Positions 31,692 through 42,809 of a DNA stretch of 64,000 nucleotides are shown here, in pieces. Made by a program: the position numbers and the translations under genes. A model generated the notes under the pieces. That model was not told the DNA's origin and did no database searches. It saw only the letters and a list, made by a program, of their open reading frames with translations. Position 1 is the stretch's first letter. Each line of letters opens with the position of its first letter. Source of the DNA: a virus (Duplodnaviria; Caudoviricetes); IMG/VR virus record IMGVR_UViG_3300044712_000264, positions 1,023 through 65,022 of that record; one strand, written 5' to 3'.

Positions 31692-34600
31692 ATGGCTTTT
31701 GAATTTGATAGCAGTACAGCGCAAGCAGAAAATACGTTTGATTGGGCTACTGCAGTTCCATACGAGTCACCAAAACCACCATCTCTAACAGACCGTCTTG
31801 GCTTTGGCATCCGCAACACCATAGACTATGGCCGCATCGCTGCAACCAATGACAAAGACGAGATAGCTGGAATCGTTGCTGATGTTGATAGCAGACGCAC
31901 AGCACCTACGCATGAACAGGTGCAGATGCAGAAGGAATACGACCCATACCGCCAGCGCGCAAACGAAGCGGATGGCGTAGTCGATACGACGCTTGCATAC
32001 GGGTCTGCTGCTGCTAAACGGTTGGGACAATTTGCGCAGCACCCACGTGAATTTGCGGGGATGATTGCCGAGAATCTGCCCAATTCAGCGCCAGGTATGG
32101 CTGCAGGTCTCGCCGGTGCGGCATTAGGCTCTCAGGTATTACCTGGATGGGGAACGGCAGTAGGTGGCGTTGTAGGAGGCACTGCTGGCGGATATGCGGT
32201 TGAGCAAGGTTCCTCCATGCTTGAGCAAATCCAAAAAGAGGCTCAAGCACGGGGCATCAACCCACAAGACAAGGCCGCAATGTCGGCCATGATCGGGGAG
32301 AAATACTCCGAATTCTTGCCAGCTTCACAGCGCAAAGGTGTCGGCACAGCAGGGACAGACGCACTACTCAACACCTTGACAATGGGTGTTGCTGGGGCAG
32401 GTGAGCGAGTCCTTGCAAAAGAAGCCAGAGCACTTGCCGAAGGCGTAAAAGACGGTTCTATCAGCGCAACAAAAGCCGCTGAAATATCGGCTGACATTTC
32501 AGCGCGTAACGCTGCAATGAATACGCTTGGTGCCAAGACACTACGCGGAGCAGGCATCACCGGCAGTGAGATGGCTGGAGAAGGCTTGTCTGAGGCCGCA
32601 GGGCAGAAGTACGCCTATGGGAATGTCGATGCTGGCGACGTGATTGATGAATCCTTGCTTGGCTTAGGTCAAGGTGTCGGCATGGCAGCTGGGCATAAGG
32701 CGATTGATAGGGTTACTGGTGCATCGGATAGCAACCAGATTGACGATTACCTAAAAGCTACTGCACCTCAACAACAAGAAACACCCCCAGATCAACCTCC
32801 CCTGATTGGCTCAAACCCGGATGCAGGGGCAATGGTTGTATTCAAAGACGGTACAACCGCATATCGTTCTGACTTTGAAAACGCTCTTGCTGCAATGCCA
32901 GAAGATGAGCGTGCAGCAACCATGGCGCGCGTCATGGGGTATGCGCCACAGTCAGCGAACCCGGATGAATCGGCGATCAACCCGGACGACCCGGCTATAC
33001 CGCCCCAACAGACAAAATCAGAGGCAATGGGGCTGGTCCCCACTGATGCTCCGTCCATCACCAATGCCGCAATCGCCGCCGTTGAAACTGGCGCGCATGA
33101 CATCGAGCAAGAGAATGCCGCACAAGAGCAAGCGTCAACACTTGAACAGGCTGCGCATGCAACCAAAGTCGAAGCGCCAAAGGTTGACCAGAAGAATATC
33201 GCTATCGAGATAGCCAAGTCTTTGCGCGAGGGAATTGCAGCAGACGCGCAAGCCGGAGTAATCCGCCCGCCACAAGAACAAGAGCGTTCAATGCTGCTTG
33301 GATTGCTTGATGTACAAGATGGCGGCAACCTCAGCAACCAGGAACTTGAGAGCAGGCTATCCGCCAAACAACGAAAGGATTTTGAGTGGCTGCAAAACTT
33401 TTCAGCCAGCGAAAGTATCGCAACGGCACGGCGCAATGCGCAACAACAGCCGACAACGCAATCAGATTTACCCACCACGCCAACTACAGGAGAAACCTAT
33501 GGCAACCAAAACCCCAGTACCCAGCAAAAAATCAGCTCCCAGCAAAGCCCCGGCCAAGATGCCAATGCAGATGCCCAAGGGCAAAAAGGGCTGCTAAACC
33601 CGCAGACTCTTGCGCAACACCCCTACTCCACCAACTCGGGGGATGCTCAAAACAATGATCAAACCACCCAAGCCATCGCGCCAGAAGCGCAACAACCGGC
33701 CCAGCAGCCCGGCGCCAAGCCTACCCCAGCGCCCCTGAGCGTGCCGGATAGGCTTCGGGCACAGAGGGAGCAGCTATCTGCTCCCGCCCTGCCATCTATC
33801 AATCTTCCGAAGGACGAGCGCCAACGCCAGCAGGCGCTCAAGGGAGAATTGCGAGACAGACTCGGACTAACCCCAGGCCAAACCCAAGCCGCCCCGAAGC
33901 GTAGTCCGTTCAAAGAATTCATTGTTGCCAACGGTATCAGCGACTCACCCGCCGACGTAGTTGGCGAAAGCAACGCATTCCGGGCAAACAATATCCTGCC
34001 GCGTGCATTCCGCAAGAACGGGTTAAGCCTGGACGCACTGGCCGAGAGAGCGGTTCAAGCCGGGTACATCACCCAGGACGATCTTGATGCAGGGAACGCG
34101 CATACTGTGCTGGCATCCATGATCCAGGACGAGGTTGCAGGGCGCAAGGTGCATCTCCCGATGAACATGCAGACGGATGATGCTGCGGCAAAAATGGAAT
34201 CGTACCGGCGCGCAGAGATGGAGGATGCGGCGGATAAGTATGGTTTGCCATACGACCAGTACACGCGCACAGACAATTTGGCGAGCATGGTCCGCCGTGT
34301 TCAAACCAGACTTGAACAACCAGACCCCACCGGCCTACTGAAACCAGAGCGCATCTTGCGCAATGCCCAAGATGCAGTAGCACGCATCGAGCGCAAACGC
34401 GCCCAAGAATCGGAGCGTTATCAACAGTTCGCAAAGCTGACTTCCAACGAGCAGGATGCTGCAATCGACGTGCTGACCGGCGACAATGGGCATCCAATAT
34501 TTGCGCGTCGTGCTGACCTTGATGCACACGCCGCATGGCACCAGGCACAGCAACAATGGAGCGACTTATATGGCGAAGCCTACACCCCCGACAATGCCGA

Positions 34601-37600
34601 ACAACAGAGTGTCGGAAAAGATCAAGCACCTACCGCTGGAATCACAGAAGCGAGTCCTGGAAGCGCTCAAGGAAATGATACCGCAGCACAACCGGGAAGC
34701 GCTCCAGTTCAAGATGGAACAGGCCAAGACCAGCAAGAGCAAACCTTCGGACTGACCAGCCCGAACCGCTCAGATGTTCTGACGCAGCAGGCAGCGATTG
34801 AGGCCGAAGCAGCACGCAAAGAACAGGGCGGCGATAAACCTATCACGCGCAAGGTGACTGCGGATCAGGTTGACTTGTTCAATCCTCAAGGTGGATTGTT
34901 TGATGCGCCGGCAGATGATCCTGCCCCGCCACCAACCAATCTCAAGGAAGGATTGGAGAGGATAAGGGCGAAGAATGCGCCCGCAGAAAAATTACCAGCA
35001 GGCTGGACAGAAAGCGCGCCAGGGCGACTCGCAACAAACGAAGACCCCGCAACAGGCGGCATAGTGGATACCGCAATAGGGACCGGCAAGTGGTTTGCAA
35101 TCAGCAATGAAACCAATGGACGGATACCTGGAGATTTCAATACAAGGGCAGAAGCTATTGCTGCACTCGGGACGCAGGATAAGACAGGTAGCACGACAGA
35201 CGCAACCGACTTAAACGCCATGTTTGACGATGTTTTGTCAGAAGAACTGGCAAGGCGTCAACCGGCAGAATCACCTAAGAGTGTTCCTGAAAAGATACGT
35301 GCAGCAAGAGCAAAGCGCAAGCAAGGCCCACGCACAGCCACCCAGGCCACAGTAAGCGCTGTAAAGAATACCGCATCGGCACTGAACAACGCAATCGACG
35401 GACTGGGCGCATTATTTGGCGGAAATACTAGCGGAAGGCTTGGTTCTGGTCTATCCTTTGACGAGGACACATACGCAAAGGCCAAGCCGCTATTCCAAGC
35501 TGCTATTGCCAATCTGGCAGACGCAGGCAGTGACATCAAGGAAGCCATGCGCGCCATTGTGAAGATGGTGTTAGACAAGTTTGGGAGTGCTGCTGCGCAA
35601 AATATGAAACCGTATGTTGTGCGGTTCATTCAAGATGTGCAAAGCGGAAACGATGCAGCGACAACCGATAATCATGGCAACGGAGTATCAAATGTACCAA
35701 GTACCGACAATAGTGTGGAACGAAATAGCGCAGTCGCAAGCGCTGAGCGAACCGTGGGGTACGCTATTCAGGATGACGCAGGAGGAACTACCGTCCGGCC
35801 TGGAGAAGCTGGTGGACGAACCACTGGAAGCACAGGGCGCGGACAACAGGACGGTGATAGCGTACCGACTGGTAGCACCACTGCTACAGGAGAACGAGGC
35901 AATCAGCGACTACATCATGTTGGTGGACAATCCGAGCTTACGAGCATCGTTACCGGAGCTGACTTCAGTGAACGAGGCGGTGATTCTGGCATCACAGGAG
36001 TACCTCCTGAACCCATCTCAACAAGCCAAGTTGACGCAGCTGCTGACCAAAGCCATACAGGGTTAAAAGCTGGGATTGAGCGCGCACGCGCCAATAAAGT
36101 CCCGGTAACAACGGGCGACATCGATAACATCCGAGCCACGTTACCCCAGCTACTACCCGGCCAGCAAGAAGATGTAAAACTGGCAGAAACACGCTTTGCC
36201 AAGGTTGACGGCTACGGAATGCTGTTTACCAATGGGACTGGTACAGGCAAGACATTTTCAGGTCTTGGAGTTATAAAGCGGTTTGCATTGCAAGGCAAGA
36301 ACAACACGCTGATCGTTGCGCCAGATAACAAAATTGGAACCGACTGGATAGATGCAGGCAAGCGGCTTGGCCTGGATATAACCTTGCTGAAAGACACCAA
36401 GGACTCAGGCAAGGGTATTGTCATCACGACTTACGCCAACCTTGGAGAGAACGATACTCTGGCAAGTCGCAAGTGGGATTTGGTTGTATCAGATGAGGCG
36501 CACTCGCTCATGCAAGCGGCGAACGGTGAGCCGACAAGCTACCTGTACAACCTGCGCGCTATCACCAATCACCCGGACGGCGCACATACCCGCTTCAACA
36601 TGCTGCACCGTGCGGAACTTGATCGAGCCACAGCACTTGGCAAGGGAATAGAAGAAATCGAACGCGACATGTCAGCATCGGACACAACCGATATGCGCCG
36701 TTCCTCACTCGAAGCCAAGAGCGAAAAGATGCAATCTGAGCTTGGTGATTTGCGTAAAAAACTCGATGCCGCCAAGGCCAAAGTACTGGCAGAAGTTAAA
36801 GCCAGCCAGGGTGCAGGCCGCACACGACTGGTCGCACTATCTGCTACGCCCTTCGCCTACGAAAAAACAATCGACTGGGCCAACGGCTACCTGTTTGACT
36901 ACAACGAAGGGCAGGCAAGCGAAGAAGGATCATTCCGAGGCTACAACGCGGGCAGCAACAAAGACCGCTACATGATGCAGCACTTCGGTTACTCGATGCG
37001 CTACAACAAACTCACACAGCCTGATTCAAAGGTGGATCGCGGACTGATGCAGCGCCAGTGGAATGCCAGCCTGAAAAAGTCGGGCGCATTGTCGGGCCGG
37101 ATGCTTGAGGTGAAACCCGACTATGACAGGCGCTTCATTTTGGTGGAATCAGCCATTGGCAACCGCATTGACGAAGCGCTGGATTGGATCAGCGAGCAAC
37201 GACAGGCAGAAAAAGGCCAAGGCCCATATTCCGATCTTGGAGATGCGATCAATGAGCAATTCAAGTACCTGCAAAAACGCTATCTACTGGAGGCGATCAA
37301 GGCCACTGAGGTAATTCCGATTGTGAAGCAGCACCTCGCAATGGGACGCAAGGTAGTGGTGTTCCACGATTACAAGAAGGGTGGAGGCTTCAATCCGTTT
37401 CGTGTCAATACGGCGGTGAAGTCGGACATGGCCGCTGCAGTGCGGGAGTTCGAAGCAAAGTTCAAGGACTTGGTGAATGCGCCGCTTGGTTCTATGCCTT
37501 CGCCCATTGAGGTATTCAGCCGGGAATTACCACAGACTCTGTTGATAAATGGCGACGAAAAGCAAGCTGATTTACTCAAGCGCTACAAGTCGTTCCAAGA

Positions 37601-40600
37601 CGATGCCAATGGGCCGCAGGTCATGCTGGTGCAGTCTGCCAAGAACAAAGGCTGGAGTGGGCACGACACCACAGGCAAGCATCAGCGTGTGCTAATCAAC
37701 CTGGGGCAACCCACAGCCCCCACACTGGCGATACAGCAAGAGGGTCGAATCTACCGCACAGGGCAAGCATCAGACGCGATCATGCGCTACATGAACACCG
37801 GTACCAACTGGGAGCGCTGGACGTTTGCAACCACCATTGCAGGGCGGGCAAGTACCGCCGAGAACCTTGGCATGGGAGAGATGGCGCGCGCGCTCAAAGA
37901 CTCGTTCATCCAGTCGTTTGAAGAATCAGACGCTTACCCGCCAGGGCATGAAAACGAGGGCAAAGGCGGAAAGGAGCGAGACAAAGCCGCTAATGATGCG
38001 ATCACCGAGTACGACCGGGCAAAGACCTTCTACTTCGGGCAACAGAAAAAGAACAGCAAAACCAAAGCGCAAGAGGGTGCCGACTACTTCGCCACGCCTG
38101 AGCCTATCGGCCTGAAAATGGCGCAATGGCTGGATGCGCGAGGCGGTGAGGATGTTCTTGAACCAAGCGCAGGGCATGGAGCAATTGCACGATGGATACC
38201 AGACAACACCAGCCGTACCGCAATTGAGCCAAGCCTGACGCTGCGCTCACGCATGGCAATGGTGATGAATCCTACCGAGGATCGCATTATTGATGGTACG
38301 TTTGAAGATCACCACGTTGGAAACAAGTACGACGGCATTGCGATGAATCCGCCATTTGGATCAGGCGGGAAGACGGCCATTGACCATCTGGCAAAAGCTG
38401 CGACCCACTTGCGAGACGGTGGACGCATTGTTGCGCTGATACCCACCGGGCCAGCAGCAGATAAGAAGTTTGATAAGTGGTTTTATGACAAGAGCGAGAG
38501 GCCGGTCAAGCCACTATTCAAGTCTGATGCGGGCGATGTTCGTAAGGGCGATACGGTCTATGTCTACGATGAATATCAGAAGAAAGAACGGCCTTTTATT
38601 GTTGGGTCGTATGACTCAAAGAACAACCTCTTCTTTGACGTTGGTAGAACAATCGGATGGGGCACGCACGAAGTTCGTAGGGTTGAGCGCACAGGCACGC
38701 AAACCGAGTCATTCAACGCCGCAGAAGGCTTGCAGTTGGTTGCCAACATCAAACTGCCACAAGTTGCATTTGAACGCGCTGGAACGTCAGTAGCTACGCG
38801 CATTGTGGTTCTTGAGAAAGGTGGCGCAAATGTGATGCAGCGTGACCGGGATTACTCGGGTATCACGGACATCAACGAACTGTTCGACAAACTTGAGCAC
38901 CTGGACTTTGCAGCCAGAACCAAGCCGGTAGAAGCTGCGCCTGTTGAAGCTACAAAGGCTGAAAAGCCAGCAACAGCACCCAAGCCCGCAAAGTCAGCCG
39001 CCAATGAAGGAGACGAAGTTTCTATCAACGGCAAGAAGTACGAAATCCAGATTTACACCACCAACGTAGGCAAGGCGAAGCGCGGTATTTGGATGGACTC
39101 AAAAACAGAGGCCAGCAAGTACAGCGCCCGCACATTCACGCACAGCTCCAACAAGGGCAAGTGGTTTGTTGATGAATACTGGTTCCCGAAGGATTCTGAG
39201 ATCATCAAACCATCCACACAACAATCCCACATCAGCAACGGCGACTCCAGCTACGAAGAGACTGCCAAGGTGCAAGCTGGCATCGAGGGCAAAAGCCTTA
39301 TTGACGCAGCTCGATTCATTGAGCAAACAGGCACACCAGCACAGGCCGAGATTGCAAAGCAAGTCATCTCCAAACTGGAGCGATTACAGGCCAGTAGTGT
39401 CAAACTGGAATTGATCGTTGCGCATCGTGGCGACCAGGTTCCTGCACAAATGGGTAAGTCCAGGGGGTACACAGAATCCGGGTTTGACAACAAAGGCCGC
39501 GATATTACTGTGTGGGTAGCTGGTGCCGATGTGACTGGCCGGGTAGGGACGGATTACGAAACGGTGCTGCATGAGATGGTACACGCTGCGACGATGGGCG
39601 TTGTTCAGTTCGGTAGAACAAATCCCAATTCTTTGGCCGGTAAGCATGTCCGGGATCTGTCCGCCGTAACGAGCGCTATATCCAGCCACATCATCGACAG
39701 GTTCGCCCAGGCCGACAGCGGCAAAACAGAATTGACCGAGTTTGAAAAGGATGTGCGAGCTGGGGCAAACAACGCCTTCCGTGGTATTGACGAGGTGCTT
39801 TCATGGGCTTTGACAAGTCCTCAAGCACAGTCATATCTTGAAGGGATACCATACAAAAACCAGAACCTGTGGACCAAGTTGGTGCAGGCGATTCGCACTC
39901 TGCTTGGCCTTTCGCCAACAGCAGACACGGCCTTGTCAGAAGTCTTGCGCGTTGCTGAAAACCTGATGGCATCCGATCTGAACGACCACGCTATGCAGGC
40001 ATTTTGGCACAAGCGAGGGATAGGGATGAGCACCATTCAGGCGGCAGGCTCCATTGTCCTGCCAAAGAAAAACGGGCCGAAATCCCTAATCACAAACCAA
40101 GCCCTGCCAACAACATGGCAAGCACCAGATGCCACCAAGATGGACGACTTCATCTACTCGATGCAGGACAAGAACATCGACACGCGACGAGTCATTGACA
40201 CCATCAACCAGACCATAGGGGCCATCAATGAGCAGCAAAACCCGTACCTGCAGGAAGAGTTGTACCACGGGCGCGCAGCCATGGCCACCAAGGAGTTCTT
40301 GGAGAAGCAGGTGCGCCCGTTGTTGGTTGAACTGCGCACACGCGGCATAACGATGGAGGACTTGGAAGCGTATCTGCACAATCGACACGCCGAAGCGCGC
40401 AACATCCAGGCGGCGAAGATCAATCCCGACAACCAAGACATGCAGGACGGCGGCAGCGGCATCAAGACTGCCGATGCTCGCGCCTACCTTGCTGCATTGA
40501 CCCCTGCGCAAACCACGGCATTCAAGTCGCTGGCGGCCAAGGTTGAGAAGATCACCCAATCCACCCGTGAGTTGCTGGTTTCCAGCGGTCTTGAAAAGCA

Positions 40601-42809
40601 GTCAACCATCGGAGCATGGGAACAAGCCTACGGCGACGAGTACGTCCCACTGCAACGTGAGGAAATGGAGAACGGCATGGGCATCGGCCAGGGCATCAGC
40701 ACCCGTGGAAGTGCCAGCAAGCGATTCATGGGAAGCGATAAGAAGGTGGTAAACATCTTCTCAAACATCGTCATGGCGCATGAGCGGGCCATCACCCGCA
40801 GCGAGAAAAAGCGTATTGGTGAAGCGCTCTACGGCCTGGTGCTCAAGGCGCCCAACCCCGACTTCTGGTTTGCAATTGACCCTGCATTGCAGCAAAACCC
40901 GAAGAAGGTCATGGACACCATGATGCAGCTTGTCAACATGGGCCTGGACCCCGCAGACGCGGACAGCATTGCCAGAGAGCCGACGACACGCTACATCAAC
41001 CCAATCACCAAGACGGTGGAGTCACGCATCAATCCAGCCATGCGCAATGCAGAAAACGTTCTGGCCGTTCGCATTGATGGCGAGGATAAGTTCGTGTTCT
41101 TCAACAAGAAGGATGAGCGTGCCATGCGTATGGTCAAGGCGCTAAAAAATCTTGATTCTGACCAGTTGGGAGAGGTAATGGGCGCTGTATCCAAGGCCAC
41201 CCGCTACTTTTCGGCCATCAATACGCAGTTCAATCCGATCTTCGGCGTGACCAACCTGCTGCGCGACATTCAGACGGGCATGCTCAATCTGCAATCCACC
41301 GCACTCAAAGGCAAGCAAGGTGCCATCGCCAAGAACGTGGTACCGGCACTGATGGGCATCTATTCTGACTTGCGCAAACACCGTGCAGGGAAAGCGGCAA
41401 CATCTGACTATGCGAAGCTGTTCGAAGAGTTTCAGCGCGAAGGTGGCGCAACGGGATACCGTGATATGTTTGCCAATGCGAAAGAACGCGCAGACGCAAT
41501 CGAGCAAGAGATCAAAGACATCGGCGCTGGCAAGGCCAAGCAGTTGGGTAAAGGAATCCTTGGCTGGTTGAGTGACTACAACGAAGCAATGGAGAACTCT
41601 GTGCGATTGTCAGCGTACAAGGTTGCCAAGGAACAGGGCATGAGCAACCAGCAAGCTGCTAGCCTTGCCAAGAATCTGACGGTGAACTTCAACCGCAAGG
41701 GGCAAGTGGCGCTACAGGCTGGTGCGCTGTATGCGTTCTTCAATGCCAGTGTGCAGGGCACTGCGCGCATCGCCCAGACTCTTACCGAAGATGGCAAGCT
41801 GTCTACCGTTGGAAAGCAGATCCTCATCGGAGGATTGACGCTGGGTGCCATGCAGGCCGTATTACTGGCCGCTGCGGGGTTTGACGATGGGGAGCCTCCA
41901 GACTTCGTGCGCGAGAGGAATCTGATTATCCCGATTGGCGGAAGCAAGTATGTCTCCATCCCCATGCCGCTGGGCTTCCACGTGATACCAGGCCTTGCGC
42001 GCATTCCTACAGAGTGGGCCATGGGCGGATTCAAGAACACGCCAAAGCGCATCGCCCAGATCGCAGCCATGTTCGCTGAGGCCATGAACCCCATTGGGTC
42101 TGCGGGATTGTCGATGCAAACACTGGCGCCCACAGTGCTCGATCCGTTTGCTGCTTTGACTGAAAACAGAGACTGGACAGGTAAGCCGATTGCCAAGTTG
42201 GACTTTAACTCCCTGCGCCCCACTGCGGGCCACACGCGGGCAAAGGACACCGCCACGCCCTGGGCTACGTTCCTATCCAAAGCAGTCAACTACGCAACAG
42301 GTGGAGACGAGTACAAACCAGGAGTTGCGAGTCCAACGCCAGACCAGATTGATTACCTGATCGGCCAGGTTACGGGTGGCGTTGGCCGCGAGATCAGCAA
42401 GGCATCACAGGTGGTGAAATCAGCAACGACAGGTGAGGATTTGCCACTGTTCAAGACACCATTGATTGGGCGCTTTGTCGGAACCACAGAAGGCAATGCA
42501 GCCGAATCAAGCCGGTTCTATGAGAACCTGAAACAGATCGGCGCGCACAAAGCCGAGATTGATGGCCTCAAGCGGGACCACAAGCCATTGGAAATCATTC
42601 GATACCTGCGCGAGAACCCGGATGCGCAACTGTTGACTGCTGCGACGCACGTTGAAGAGCAGATTCAGAAATTGACGCACCTACGGCGCGCACTGGTTAA
42701 GAAAGATACGCCACCGGAGCGCGTTAAGGCAATAAACGATCAGATCACAGCCAGGATGGCGCAGTTCAACAAGATGGTGAAGCAGAGGGAGTTGGCGGGG
42801 GCGGGGTGA
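31692..42809 (+). CDS. Giant DarB-like polyvalent virion protein (SF2 helicase + N6-adenine MTase + HExxH metallopeptidase + LPD38-like C-terminus)
   Basis: NGTGTGKT (~36231), DEAH (~36492), SATP, QEGRIYR; EPSAGHG (~38160), NPPF (~38346); LHEMVH (~39570); C-terminal LTVNFNRKG/LYAFFNASVQG/IPMPLGF. Confidence 0.85.
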   Translation: MAFEFDSSTAQAENTFDWATAVPYESPKPPSLTDRLGFGIRNTIDYGRIAATNDKDEIAGIVADVDSRRTAPTHEQVQMQKEYDPYRQRANEADGVVDTTLAYGSAAAKRLGQFAQHPREFAGMIAENLPNSAPGMAAGLAGAALGSQVLPGWGTAVGGVVGGTAGGYAVEQGSSMLEQIQKEAQARGINPQDKAAMSAMIGEKYSEFLPASQRKGVGTAGTDALLNTLTMGVAGAGERVLAKEARALAEGVKDGSISATKAAEISADISARNAAMNTLGAKTLRGAGITGSEMAGEGLSEAAGQKYAYGNVDAGDVIDESLLGLGQGVGMAAGHKAIDRVTGASDSNQIDDYLKATAPQQQETPPDQPPLIGSNPDAGAMVVFKDGTTAYRSDFENALAAMPEDERAATMARVMGYAPQSANPDESAINPDDPAIPPQQTKSEAMGLVPTDAPSITNAAIAAVETGAHDIEQENAAQEQASTLEQAAHATKVEAPKVDQKNIAIEIAKSLREGIAADAQAGVIRPPQEQERSMLLGLLDVQDGGNLSNQELESRLSAKQRKDFEWLQNFSASESIATARRNAQQQPTTQSDLPTTPTTGETYGNQNPSTQQKISSQQSPGQDANADAQGQKGLLNPQTLAQHPYSTNSGDAQNNDQTTQAIAPEAQQPAQQPGAKPTPAPLSVPDRLRAQREQLSAPALPSINLPKDERQRQQALKGELRDRLGLTPGQTQAAPKRSPFKEFIVANGISDSPADVVGESNAFRANNILPRAFRKNGLSLDALAERAVQAGYITQDDLDAGNAHTVLASMIQDEVAGRKVHLPMNMQTDDAAAKMESYRRAEMEDAADKYGLPYDQYTRTDNLASMVRRVQTRLEQPDPTGLLKPERILRNAQDAVARIERKRAQESERYQQFAKLTSNEQDAAIDVLTGDNGHPIFARRADLDAHAAWHQAQQQWSDLYGEAYTPDNAEQQSVGKDQAPTAGITEASPGSAQGNDTAAQPGSAPVQDGTGQDQQEQTFGLTSPNRSDVLTQQAAIEAEAARKEQGGDKPITRKVTADQVDLFNPQGGLFDAPADDPAPPPTNLKEGLERIRAKNAPAEKLPAGWTESAPGRLATNEDPATGGIVDTAIGTGKWFAISNETNGRIPGDFNTRAEAIAALGTQDKTGSTTDATDLNAMFDDVLSEELARRQPAESPKSVPEKIRAARAKRKQGPRTATQATVSAVKNTASALNNAIDGLGALFGGNTSGRLGSGLSFDEDTYAKAKPLFQAAIANLADAGSDIKEAMRAIVKMVLDKFGSAAAQNMKPYVVRFIQDVQSGNDAATTDNHGNGVSNVPSTDNSVERNSAVASAERTVGYAIQDDAGGTTVRPGEAGGRTTGSTGRGQQDGDSVPTGSTTATGERGNQRLHHVGGQSELTSIVTGADFSERGGDSGITGVPPEPISTSQVDAAADQSHTGLKAGIERARANKVPVTTGDIDNIRATLPQLLPGQQEDVKLAETRFAKVDGYGMLFTNGTGTGKTFSGLGVIKRFALQGKNNTLIVAPDNKIGTDWIDAGKRLGLDITLLKDTKDSGKGIVITTYANLGENDTLASRKWDLVVSDEAHSLMQAANGEPTSYLYNLRAITNHPDGAHTRFNMLHRAELDRATALGKGIEEIERDMSASDTTDMRRSSLEAKSEKMQSELGDLRKKLDAAKAKVLAEVKASQGAGRTRLVALSATPFAYEKTIDWANGYLFDYNEGQASEEGSFRGYNAGSNKDRYMMQHFGYSMRYNKLTQPDSKVDRGLMQRQWNASLKKSGALSGRMLEVKPDYDRRFILVESAIGNRIDEALDWISEQRQAEKGQGPYSDLGDAINEQFKYLQKRYLLEAIKATEVIPIVKQHLAMGRKVVVFHDYKKGGGFNPFRVNTAVKSDMAAAVREFEAKFKDLVNAPLGSMPSPIEVFSRELPQTLLINGDEKQADLLKRYKSFQDDANGPQVMLVQSAKNKGWSGHDTTGKHQRVLINLGQPTAPTLAIQQEGRIYRTGQASDAIMRYMNTGTNWERWTFATTIAGRASTAENLGMGEMARALKDSFIQSFEESDAYPPGHENEGKGGKERDKAANDAITEYDRAKTFYFGQQKKNSKTKAQEGADYFATPEPIGLKMAQWLDARGGEDVLEPSAGHGAIARWIPDNTSRTAIEPSLTLRSRMAMVMNPTEDRIIDGTFEDHHVGNKYDGIAMNPPFGSGGKTAIDHLAKAATHLRDGGRIVALIPTGPAADKKFDKWFYDKSERPVKPLFKSDAGDVRKGDTVYVYDEYQKKERPFIVGSYDSKNNLFFDVGRTIGWGTHEVRRVERTGTQTESFNAAEGLQLVANIKLPQVAFERAGTSVATRIVVLEKGGANVMQRDRDYSGITDINELFDKLEHLDFAARTKPVEAAPVEATKAEKPATAPKPAKSAANEGDEVSINGKKYEIQIYTTNVGKAKRGIWMDSKTEASKYSARTFTHSSNKGKWFVDEYWFPKDSEIIKPSTQQSHISNGDSSYEETAKVQAGIEGKSLIDAARFIEQTGTPAQAEIAKQVISKLERLQASSVKLELIVAHRGDQVPAQMGKSRGYTESGFDNKGRDITVWVAGADVTGRVGTDYETVLHEMVHAATMGVVQFGRTNPNSLAGKHVRDLSAVTSAISSHIIDRFAQADSGKTELTEFEKDVRAGANNAFRGIDEVLSWALTSPQAQSYLEGIPYKNQNLWTKLVQAIRTLLGLSPTADTALSEVLRVAENLMASDLNDHAMQAFWHKRGIGMSTIQAAGSIVLPKKNGPKSLITNQALPTTWQAPDATKMDDFIYSMQDKNIDTRRVIDTINQTIGAINEQQNPYLQEELYHGRAAMATKEFLEKQVRPLLVELRTRGITMEDLEAYLHNRHAEARNIQAAKINPDNQDMQDGGSGIKTADARAYLAALTPAQTTAFKSLAAKVEKITQSTRELLVSSGLEKQSTIGAWEQAYGDEYVPLQREEMENGMGIGQGISTRGSASKRFMGSDKKVVNIFSNIVMAHERAITRSEKKRIGEALYGLVLKAPNPDFWFAIDPALQQNPKKVMDTMMQLVNMGLDPADADSIAREPTTRYINPITKTVESRINPAMRNAENVLAVRIDGEDKFVFFNKKDERAMRMVKALKNLDSDQLGEVMGAVSKATRYFSAINTQFNPIFGVTNLLRDIQTGMLNLQSTALKGKQGAIAKNVVPALMGIYSDLRKHRAGKAATSDYAKLFEEFQREGGATGYRDMFANAKERADAIEQEIKDIGAGKAKQLGKGILGWLSDYNEAMENSVRLSAYKVAKEQGMSNQQAASLAKNLTVNFNRKGQVALQAGALYAFFNASVQGTARIAQTLTEDGKLSTVGKQILIGGLTLGAMQAVLLAAAGFDDGEPPDFVRERNLIIPIGGSKYVSIPMPLGFHVIPGLARIPTEWAMGGFKNTPKRIAQIAAMFAEAMNPIGSAGLSMQTLAPTVLDPFAALTENRDWTGKPIAKLDFNSLRPTAGHTRAKDTATPWATFLSKAVNYATGGDEYKPGVASPTPDQIDYLIGQVTGGVGREISKASQVVKSATTGEDLPLFKTPLIGRFVGTTEGNAAESSRFYENLKQIGAHKAEIDGLKRDHKPLEIIRYLRENPDAQLLTAATHVEEQIQKLTHLRRALVKKDTPPERVKAINDQITARMAQFNKMVKQRELAGAG
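33499..33597 (+). CDS. Nested +1-frame small basic protein (32 aa)
   Basis: AGGAG-6nt-ATG; MATKTPVPSKKSAPSKAPAKMPMQMPKGKKGC. Confidence 0.5.
   Translation: MATKTPVPSKKSAPSKAPAKMPMQMPKGKKGC
34570..34755 (+). CDS. Nested +1-frame protein (61 aa)
   Basis: GGAG-8nt-ATG; helical VSEKIKHLPLESQKRVLEALKEMI. Confidence 0.45.
   Translation: MAKPTPPTMPNNRVSEKIKHLPLESQKRVLEALKEMIPQHNREALQFKMEQAKTSKSKPSD
35692..36066 (+). CDS. Nested +1-frame globular protein (124 aa)
   Basis: GGAG-6nt-ATG; ordered amphipathic helical sequence while the host frame is G/S/T low-complexity. Confidence 0.6.
   Translation: MYQVPTIVWNEIAQSQALSEPWGTLFRMTQEELPSGLEKLVDEPLEAQGADNRTVIAYRLVAPLLQENEAISDYIMLVDNPSLRASLPELTSVNEAVILASQEYLLNPSQQAKLTQLLTKAIQG

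Follow-up and report, generated by a model that had tools for sequence, protein, structure and literature searches.

Two, perhaps three, linker stretches of a giant DarB-like phage gene appear to be read in two frames

Can the low-complexity linkers of a very large phage gene serve, at the same time, as coding sequence for other, smaller proteins? The question is raised by a stretch of 64,000 nucleotides (nt), here called the window, which is a portion (positions 1,023 to 65,022) of the 65-kilobase (kb) virus record IMGVR_UViG_3300044712_000264 (Duplodnaviria; Caudoviricetes). On its plus strand a giant open reading frame (ORF) of 3705 amino acids (aa) at 31692-42809, identified from the ORF list and its translation as the gene of a polyvalent (DarB-like) protein, defines the host frame (frame 0) and contains three small ORFs in another frame, each preceded by a Shine-Dalgarno (SD) core. 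Here, we compare this region with its relatives and conclude from the sequences that two, perhaps three, low-complexity linker stretches of the giant gene are in all likelihood read in two frames, a reading to which we give a probability of about 0.85.

All three small ORFs begin at position 2 of a giant codon, that is in the +1 frame, and lie on the same strand and wholly within 31692-42809. ORF1 (33499-33597, plus strand) has 32 aa, is rich in lysine, proline and alanine, ends in KGKKGC and is a candidate embedded gene; ORF2 (34570-34755, plus strand; 61 aa) is a probable one, for a basic protein with three predicted helices; ORF3 (35692-36066, plus strand; 124 aa) is an embedded gene for an all-helical protein of a family without a name, with the conserved start MYQVP. 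The SD cores, on the same strand, are AGGAG at 33488-33492, 6 nt before the ATG of ORF1 and kept in the related loci L001 and L016; GGAG at 34558-34561, 8 nt before the ATG of ORF2, core and ATG both being retained in close relatives and the core identical in L001, the more distant locus L014 having AGGA 4 nt before its ATG; and GGAG at 35682-35685, 6 nt before the ATG of ORF3. Over each of the three the giant frame is of low complexity, rich in glutamine, glycine, serine, threonine, alanine and aspartate. The original prediction, made from the letters of the window, had named these ORFs, and its coordinates, lengths, frame, SD cores and low-complexity host frame are all correct. It had also put the end of the third ORF about 70 nt before the helicase core: the proximity is real, the distance being 96 nt to the start of the Pfam ResIII match (aa 1491, nt 36162) and about 25 nt to the conserved N-terminal motif of the helicase.

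Considered by itself, the sequence of the window does not raise these ORFs above chance, and the case for ORF3 and ORF2 is the comparison with relatives. The giant gene has 55% G+C and +1 open runs of 152, 135, 117, 114, 111, 107, 106 and 92 codons. In 500 synonymous-codon shuffles of the gene, SD-equipped +1 ORFs of at least 30 aa numbered 2.3 +/- 1.4, compared with four in the real sequence, and 19% of the shuffles reached four; the longest +1 run averaged 148 codons, compared with 152 in reality, and an SD-equipped +1 ORF of at least 120 aa occurred in 9.8% of the shuffles. When the giant protein is held fixed, the probability of an open +1 frame is 0.5-0.9 over ORF1 and ORF2, with 0.5-0.6 for ORF2, as expected from the composition of the linkers. 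All of these figures weigh against the reading proposed here. For ORF3 the same probability is 0.037 in the window and 0.013-0.34 across loci. The fourth SD-equipped +1 ORF (37123-37314, plus strand; 63 aa) is absent from the original prediction, lies within the helicase and can be put down to chance; as an internal negative control it has position 3 of the giant codons as the most variable (0.57-0.63 in one scan, 0.48-0.61 in a scan of the whole gene), with no sign of constraint. A tblastn comparison of all 180 alternative-frame pieces with the relatives was uninformative, because any frame looks conserved where the giant protein is conserved.

The relatives come from scans that used first the giant-frame protein and next ORF3 as the query, and homologs of ORF3 (35-92% identity) are present in 14 fetched loci, including one (L004) that was picked up through the giant frame and not through ORF3 and carries ORF3 nonetheless. 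Of the 13 loci examined, 11 have an open giant-equivalent frame, one base upstream, that spans between 1317 and more than 2790 codons; the two exceptions are L016, a contig of a metagenome-assembled genome (MAG) with frame breaks, and L020, which has a stand-alone copy. Embedded +1 homologs of ORF3 occur in 12 metagenomic or MAG loci, in a RefSeq record, the circular 57.7-kb “plasmid” of Comamonas thiooxydans, and in six cultured phages identified by tblastn, namely Serratia phage Parlo, Pseudomonas phage Skulduggery, Klebsiella phage vB_KpnP_ZX1, Vibrio phages 1.232.O and D274 and Ruegeria phage 45A6. In every embedded locus the giant-frame match extends from about ORF3 into the helicase-methylase part. 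In three loci with 38-39% G+C the ORF3 run reaches 171 codons, the next-longest +1 runs are 75-82 codons, and there are about 235 +1 stops per giant gene. That standard annotation would miss such genes had been anticipated and is borne out: none of the seven annotated records (the six phages and the plasmid, for which the +1 relation was computed from printed coordinates) lists the ORF3 homolog, and the giant coding sequence (CDS) is the sole feature over the match. Gene callers do recover members of the family where the end of a contig cuts the giant gene.

The start of ORF3 is kept as well. In 14 of 15 loci, and in all six cultured phages, the homologous ATG is preceded at 4-12 nt by a GGAG, AGGA or GAGG core, as judged by eye on the printed sequences; the exception (L022) has only GGGA. 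In six loci (L015, L022, Parlo, ZX1 and both Vibrio phages) the +1 frame opens merely 2-8 codons before the ATG, and the position of the stop varies among loci, giving proteins of 119-138 aa. Because SD core and ATG are kept, the frame opens so close upstream and the stop varies, ORF3 would be initiated independently rather than reached by frameshifting. The search of homologs for the ORF and its SD, which the original prediction had named as its own check, has therefore come out in favor of ORF3.

A second line of evidence concerns the frame on which selection acts. In a codon alignment of 13 loci, the differences per site at ORF3 codon positions 1, 2 and 3 are 0.38, 0.28 and 0.48, and since this phase converts to the giant numbering, the third position of the giant codons is the least variable over ORF3. 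In a scan of 35391-38919 (11 loci, 30-codon bins) the giant position 3 is the most variable in all bins (0.51-0.74) except over ORF3 (0.22-0.43), and in a scan of the whole gene (12 loci, about 100 bins with data) position 3 fails to exceed another position in just seven bins, two at ORF2 and five at ORF3. The trio of Parlo, ZX1 and Skulduggery, which shares no sampling with the other codon-phase scans, gives a position-3 dip to 0.21-0.31 over four consecutive bins at the ORF3 homolog, while in the seven other flagged bins out of 147 position 3 stands at 0.40-0.62. Furthermore, in contigs of a sludge metagenome (run X2) aligned to the window, the giant position 3 takes 21 of the 22 listed differences upstream and none of the 11 within ORF3, these counts referring to the listed differences, beside 37 further ones. 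In 65 of 66 locus pairs the ORF3 frame has the greater amino acid identity over the same columns (0.556, versus 0.373 for the giant frame). This comparison of the two frames places selection in the phase of ORF3 and not in that of the giant gene.

The giant frame over ORF3 is none the less kept open. If each ORF3 protein is kept as it is while new codons are drawn for it from local usage, 1-12 giant-frame stops are expected and none is found in any of 13 loci; the probability of finding no such stop is 0.01 or lower in 8 of the 12 embedded loci. Both frames being kept open, the giant gene is therefore to be regarded as encoding one polypeptide, in which this stretch is truly read twice. Comparison of relatives shows ORF3 to behave as a real gene, embedded out of frame, with purifying selection mainly on its own frame; the giant frame over it is merely kept open as a disordered bridge.

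As to the protein itself, the original prediction had described a globular-looking product and proposed structure prediction and a profile search, which yield a compact fold and a large family without a named relative. AlphaFold2, given a 60-sequence alignment, predicts a helical bundle of seven helices with confidence (predicted local distance difference test score, pLDDT, 83.5; predicted template modeling score, pTM, 0.75), and the bundle appears to belong to no known family: Foldseek found nothing at E <= 0.001 (best E 2.6 in the PDB and 0.78 in BFVD), and Pfam, PHROGs, PADLOC and NCBIfam hold no family for any of the three ORFs, a point that counts on the negative side. A word-indexed search with ORF3 found 92 clusters and a full profile search 534 clusters at E <= 1e-3, mostly of 120-140 aa and aligned from residue 1; a few members, one of them from a Bacillota MAG, have 300-557 aa, with the extra sequence in the same frame. 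Two of the long members (P0199 and P0169) have, after the ORF3 domain, a repeated acidic domain with the motif ..W.EY..Q.Q.EES.., for which Pfam, PADLOC and NCBIfam gave no match. The best Protein Atlas score, 0.90, was to a cluster with an automatic phosphatase label; 140 of 256 features are shared with it, and the match was treated as chance. The idea of a DNA mimic of the Ocr or ArdA type was also set aside, the net charge ranging from -12 to +3 with a median of -3 over 60 members and six phage copies, so that acidity is not conserved.

Which of the two frames came first is suggested by the same comparisons: the ORF3 frame looks like the older and dominant one and the giant linker like the overprint. 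This reverses the original picture of small proteins overprinted on a linker, at least for ORF3. In line with this order, a Burkholderiales MAG contig (L020, 4001-4393) carries a stand-alone homolog (53% identity) with no giant gene, where the giant-equivalent frame has a stop just before the ORF3 SD, no helicase follows downstream and the upstream neighbor is a 517-aa ORF without known identity. One feature of the contig points the other way: the giant-equivalent frame has no stop across ORF3 itself, and the copy may for that reason descend from an embedded one. As a separate observation, a convergent type III restriction-modification pair (a ResIII helicase of 898 aa and an N6_N4 methylase) ends 64 nt away from this copy.

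For ORF2 the comparison rests mainly on L001 and L016, close relatives with about 80-90% protein identity over this part. In L016 the giant gene is split over frames 3, 2, 1 and 2, as by the indel errors of a long-read assembly, and the contig was used at the nucleotide level only. Among codons whose amino acid is unchanged, L001 has one synonymous difference in 60 within ORF2 versus 111 in 528 elsewhere (p = 2.5e-5), and L016 one in 54 versus 134 in 494 (p = 2e-6). Differences at the third position fall to 0-2 per 30 from 34515 to 34740 versus 8-15 in the flanks, and, when every position is counted, the whole 90-nt bins from 34560 differ at 0-2 sites; divergence at all three positions would be expected of a neutral linker, but this stretch is frozen. 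In L014, where the giant frame has about 37-40% identity across this module, a +1 ORF with AGGA and ATG encodes a 50-aa protein that is 39% identical to ORF2 (E about 3e-7) and shares the core KIKHLP..SQ..VL. Over the overlap, 18 of 46 residues are identical in the +1 frame (BLOSUM62 score 88) versus 13 of 46 (28%; BLOSUM62 score 49) in the giant frame. A called protein of 73 aa (P0094) is of the ORF2 type, and AlphaFold2 with a five-row alignment predicts three helices (pLDDT 74).

These results make it probable that ORF2 is a real embedded gene, a judgment that several points temper. Only two lineages carry it; the differences between the window and L014 fall evenly on the three positions (21/20/20), with no codon-phase bias; and an ORF2 profile gives E = 0.44 for a +1 ORF of record MW202426.1 (L029) while a spurious match scores 0.0058. 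Moreover, L001 matches the window almost exactly at 32940-33120 (0-5 differences per 90 nt), where no ORF lies, while L016, in which the block is absent, differs by 30-43 per 90 nt; this block is a recent mosaic exchange within the giant gene, and because of it recombination must be counted among the processes that can mimic constraint. Although the +1 ORF of MW202426.1 stands at the expected place, it was dropped as a homolog on account of its profile score, and an ORF2-like +1 run in two AT-rich phages (L042 and L043) was rejected, the giant frame there being ordinary protein with a phase signal (1/6/4 at the ORF-frame positions). Neither tblastn of ORF2 against phages (E <= 1) nor further viral scans, which returned just the two known contigs, added relatives, and the only profile rows for any of the three ORFs were two faint ones for ORF2, a MazF-like PHROG (E = 0.087) and BET (E = 0.095).

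ORF1 is on less firm ground, and here the proposal of three hidden genes does not hold as it does for ORF3, strongly, and for ORF2, fairly well: its signal is weak and comes from two relatives. In L001 and L016 its SD, ATG and stop are preserved through two in-frame indels, with one synonymous difference in 20 (p = 0.06) and none in 20 (p = 0.002), and the differences at giant positions 1, 2 and 3 are 13/10/5 over 79 codon comparisons, in the phase of ORF1 itself. On the other side of the balance, L001 and L016, its only carriers, are close and non-independent relatives; the counts are small; the probability of an open +1 frame is 0.77-0.88; a composition rich in lysine, proline and alanine is what a linker rich in glutamine, serine and proline yields in +1; and the nucleotide conservation reaches about 60 nt upstream of the ATG. 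Of two metagenome scans for the part bearing ORF1 and ORF2, the first returned no locus and the second a single distant high-GC locus (L030), which was uninformative. Judged from these alignments, the odds that ORF1 is a real embedded gene are slightly below even. The tail of P0094, rich in lysine, alanine, proline and threonine, ends in KKG.C.., like the KGKKGC end of ORF1, which may be chance or a common basic tail module.

The codon-phase scan of 32772-42760 finds its signature at ORF2 and ORF3 and in no other stretch, the first 1080 bases of the gene (31692-32771), without relatives among the loci, lying outside it. The proposal that linkers of such a gene are used as coding space thus holds strongly at ORF3 and fairly well at ORF2, and does not extend to every linker.

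If the open frames were simply those that chance leaves in linkers which rarely make +1 stops, the giant protein alone would be encoded. The window alone is within chance, as is the open +1 frame over ORF2 and ORF1; the fourth SD-equipped ORF is plainly a chance one, and the mosaic block of L001 is a case of local near-identity without an ORF. For ORF3, the codon phase, the 65 of 66 pairs, the family of 534 clusters, the confident fold and the stand-alone copy leave this explanation hardly any credit; for ORF2 it is unlikely, given the synonymous deficit in L001 and L016 and a +1 homolog where the giant frame is only 28% identical, while for ORF1 it is an even bet; overall, we consider it improbable. 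The scarcity of synonymous change over ORF1 and ORF2 might also reflect an RNA or DNA element (a structure, a promoter, a packaging or recombination site), an idea that the constraint beginning about 60 nt before the ATG of ORF1 and the few relatives of both ORFs would suit. Rfam gives no match at E <= 1 in 33200-36300, promoter-like sites number 0 where 2.1 are expected, the folding z-scores (0.36, 0.72 and -0.64) are similar to those of control stretches, and the ORF2 protein is kept in L014 and P0094 despite nucleotide divergence, all of which makes an element an improbable source as well.

Two further explanations concern ORF3. It could be a frameshift product, either of ribosomes on the giant gene slipping into +1, with a truncated protein ending in an ORF3 tail as the outcome, or of ribosomes on ORF3 slipping back, which would give an ORF3-helicase fusion. 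The protein P0068 does join ORF3 in frame with the N-terminus of the helicase, and some loci have a +1 frame that is already open far ahead of the ATG (from 3743 in L014, from 35608 in the window). Six loci, however, scarcely leave room to slip between the opening of the frame and the ATG, SD core and ATG are kept nearly everywhere, the stops vary, and no common slippery site is visible in the printed 3' ends, which were viewed without a formal search for such sites. P0068 shifts frame a second time shortly afterwards, the pattern of a contig that carries indel errors, and it was dropped as evidence of a fusion because of this double change of frame. A frameshift origin is very improbable. So, in our judgment, is the idea that the giant ORF is here an annotation artefact, the true arrangement being two large genes separated by ORF3, itself an ordinary gene, over which frame 0 is open by chance. 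It would fit the poorly conserved, low-complexity giant frame over ORF3 and the occurrence of ORF3 without a giant gene in L020. Against it stand the expected 1-12 giant-frame stops, of which none occurs in 13 of 13 loci or in the six cultured phages; a start signal for a downstream gene was not seen, though none was searched for; and in the Bcep22-like phage JC1, not among the ORF3 carriers found, the DarB-like giant protein was detected in virions by mass spectrometry (PMC9144972).

The preferred reading, in which the giant gene is one gene with smaller ones embedded in it, suggests a course of events. ORF3 would be started from its own SD and ATG as an independent gene of about 124 aa just before the helicase; being older, it would have come to be read across, in another frame, by the giant ORF, whose N-terminal modules would thereby have been joined to the helicase-methylase module. 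The giant linker may accordingly be a tolerated by-product that ties the modules together. ORF2 would probably be another embedded gene, its product small and basic with three helices, with ORF1 as a possible third, and translation of all of them may depend on internal ribosome starts on the giant gene's own mRNA, as for Rz1 inside Rz. Since ORF3 always directly precedes the helicase-methylase module, it may work with it, and a role as, for example, an assembly, packaging or regulatory partner is a tentative suggestion, the chaperone, inhibitor and anti-defense roles of the original prediction being likewise no more than candidates; a co-fold prediction of ORF3 with the helicase region, from two alignments, scored 0.00 and counts neither for nor against binding. 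More speculative, and rather doubtful, is a wider scheme, in which giant DarB-like genes were built by reading across older small genes that survive as a hidden accessory set. ORF3 would then be an obligatory partner of the helicase-methylase effector (loading, restraining or packaging it), would take in these phages the part that the Dar accessory proteins play in P1, and would be a widespread, unannotated antirestriction component.

Embedded +1 genes are already known in phages: Rz1 of lambdoid and Bcep22-like phages lies wholly within Rz, in the +1 frame, and an embedded Rz1 is stated for JC1 (PMC9144972). The present case, which is drawn from sequence alone, is alike in having a small gene wholly within a larger one, in +1, with its own ribosome-binding site and, by the same analogy, one mRNA for both products. 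It differs in that the host is the 11-kb gene of a virion polyvalent protein and not a lysis gene, that the host frame over ORF3 is a disordered linker and not a working domain, and that ORF3 is a soluble-looking helical bundle of a new family, without visible lipobox or signal peptide; by eye, none of the translations of ORF1-3 has the hydrophobic signal or the lipobox cysteine of an Rz1 o-spanin. Overprinting is also familiar from small viruses, with B in A, E in D, and K of PhiX174 and many cases in RNA viruses (reviewed in PMC8227390). The likeness is that one frame is ordered and conserved and the other disordered, with synonymous change suppressed in the overlap; the difference is that there the new frame is usually that of a small accessory protein, whereas here the small protein appears older and the giant linker new, which amounts to a fusion of two large modules over the gene between them.

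In phage P1, DarB is accompanied by the accessory proteins DarA, DdrA, DdrB, Hdf and Ulx, and the authors of the JC1 report describe Bcep22-like phages as being without homologs of the Dar accessory proteins (PMC9144972). Common to both systems would be a large helicase-methylase protein, packaged in the virion and dependent on small accessory proteins; the accessory genes are separate in P1 and embedded here, and ORF1-3 have no sequence or fold similarity to any named protein, so that an accessory role is conjectural. Embedded genes lie outside the theme of the study of polyvalent proteins by Iyer et al. (2017) (PMC5512222), whose main text uses the words “overlap,” “frameshift” and “linker” not once, and in the literature, searched without supplements such as virion proteomics tables, no report was found of genes embedded in DarB-like or polyvalent genes. 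New here are the host gene, the protein family, the breadth over which it is conserved and what looks like a fusion of modules over a gene that survives.

The ORF3 family, of several hundred clusters, is hidden within one of the largest genes of a widespread phage group, with carriers that include cultured phages of Pseudomonas, Serratia, Klebsiella, Vibrio and Ruegeria. It falls in a blind spot of annotation, gene callers discarding ORFs nested in long genes and PHROGs, Pfam and NCBIfam being without a model. A conserved co-encoded partner would change how the giant effector is studied, and large multidomain proteins could grow by bridging an intervening gene without destroying it.

Turning to the giant gene itself, its protein is thought to act as an injected antirestriction effector. 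Pfam places LPD38 at aa 3401-3591 with 133 bits (cut-off 27) and ResIII, the N-lobe of a ResIII/SNF2-type helicase, at aa 1491-1609 (36162-36518, plus strand) with 39.2 bits (cut-off 22.5); the SNF2 and methyltransferase matches are weaker, with MTS at 17.5 bits (cut-off 23) and Helicase_C_4 at 19.8 bits (cut-off 30.5) both below threshold. Being very large and multidomain, with helicase, methyltransferase and LPD domain, the gene is of the phage polyvalent or DarB-like type, and the homologous CDSs of Parlo and Skulduggery are annotated as “DarB-like antirestriction protein.” In the window it follows the genes for terminase, portal, major head protein, head-closure protein and large tail or virion proteins and precedes that for the endolysin, an order similar to that of Bcep22-like podoviruses with a “massive DarB-like protein” (PMC9144972).

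Some further observations concern other parts of the region. The giant-frame domain at aa ~1160-1320 (about 35170-35650) also occurs in ten viral contigs (L003 and L005-L013), and because no ORF3 homolog is found in their fetched flanks, it appears to be a separable module. An HExxH-like motif (HEMVHAAT) lies at aa ~2607-2614 (about 39500-39520), where no Pfam family is reported. A blastn search with the region gave no match in phages and one short match in plasmids. Among public sequencing runs, none of those containing 35300-36400 is labeled as RNA; contigs of four of them (X2, X20, X23 and X24) were aligned to the window, the two described as “TRANSCRIPTOMIC” being marked as probably DNA. 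Words sampled from the same stretch are present, at 10-17%, in 23 runs from 16 studies, mostly metagenomes of wastewater, sludge, biofilm and freshwater.

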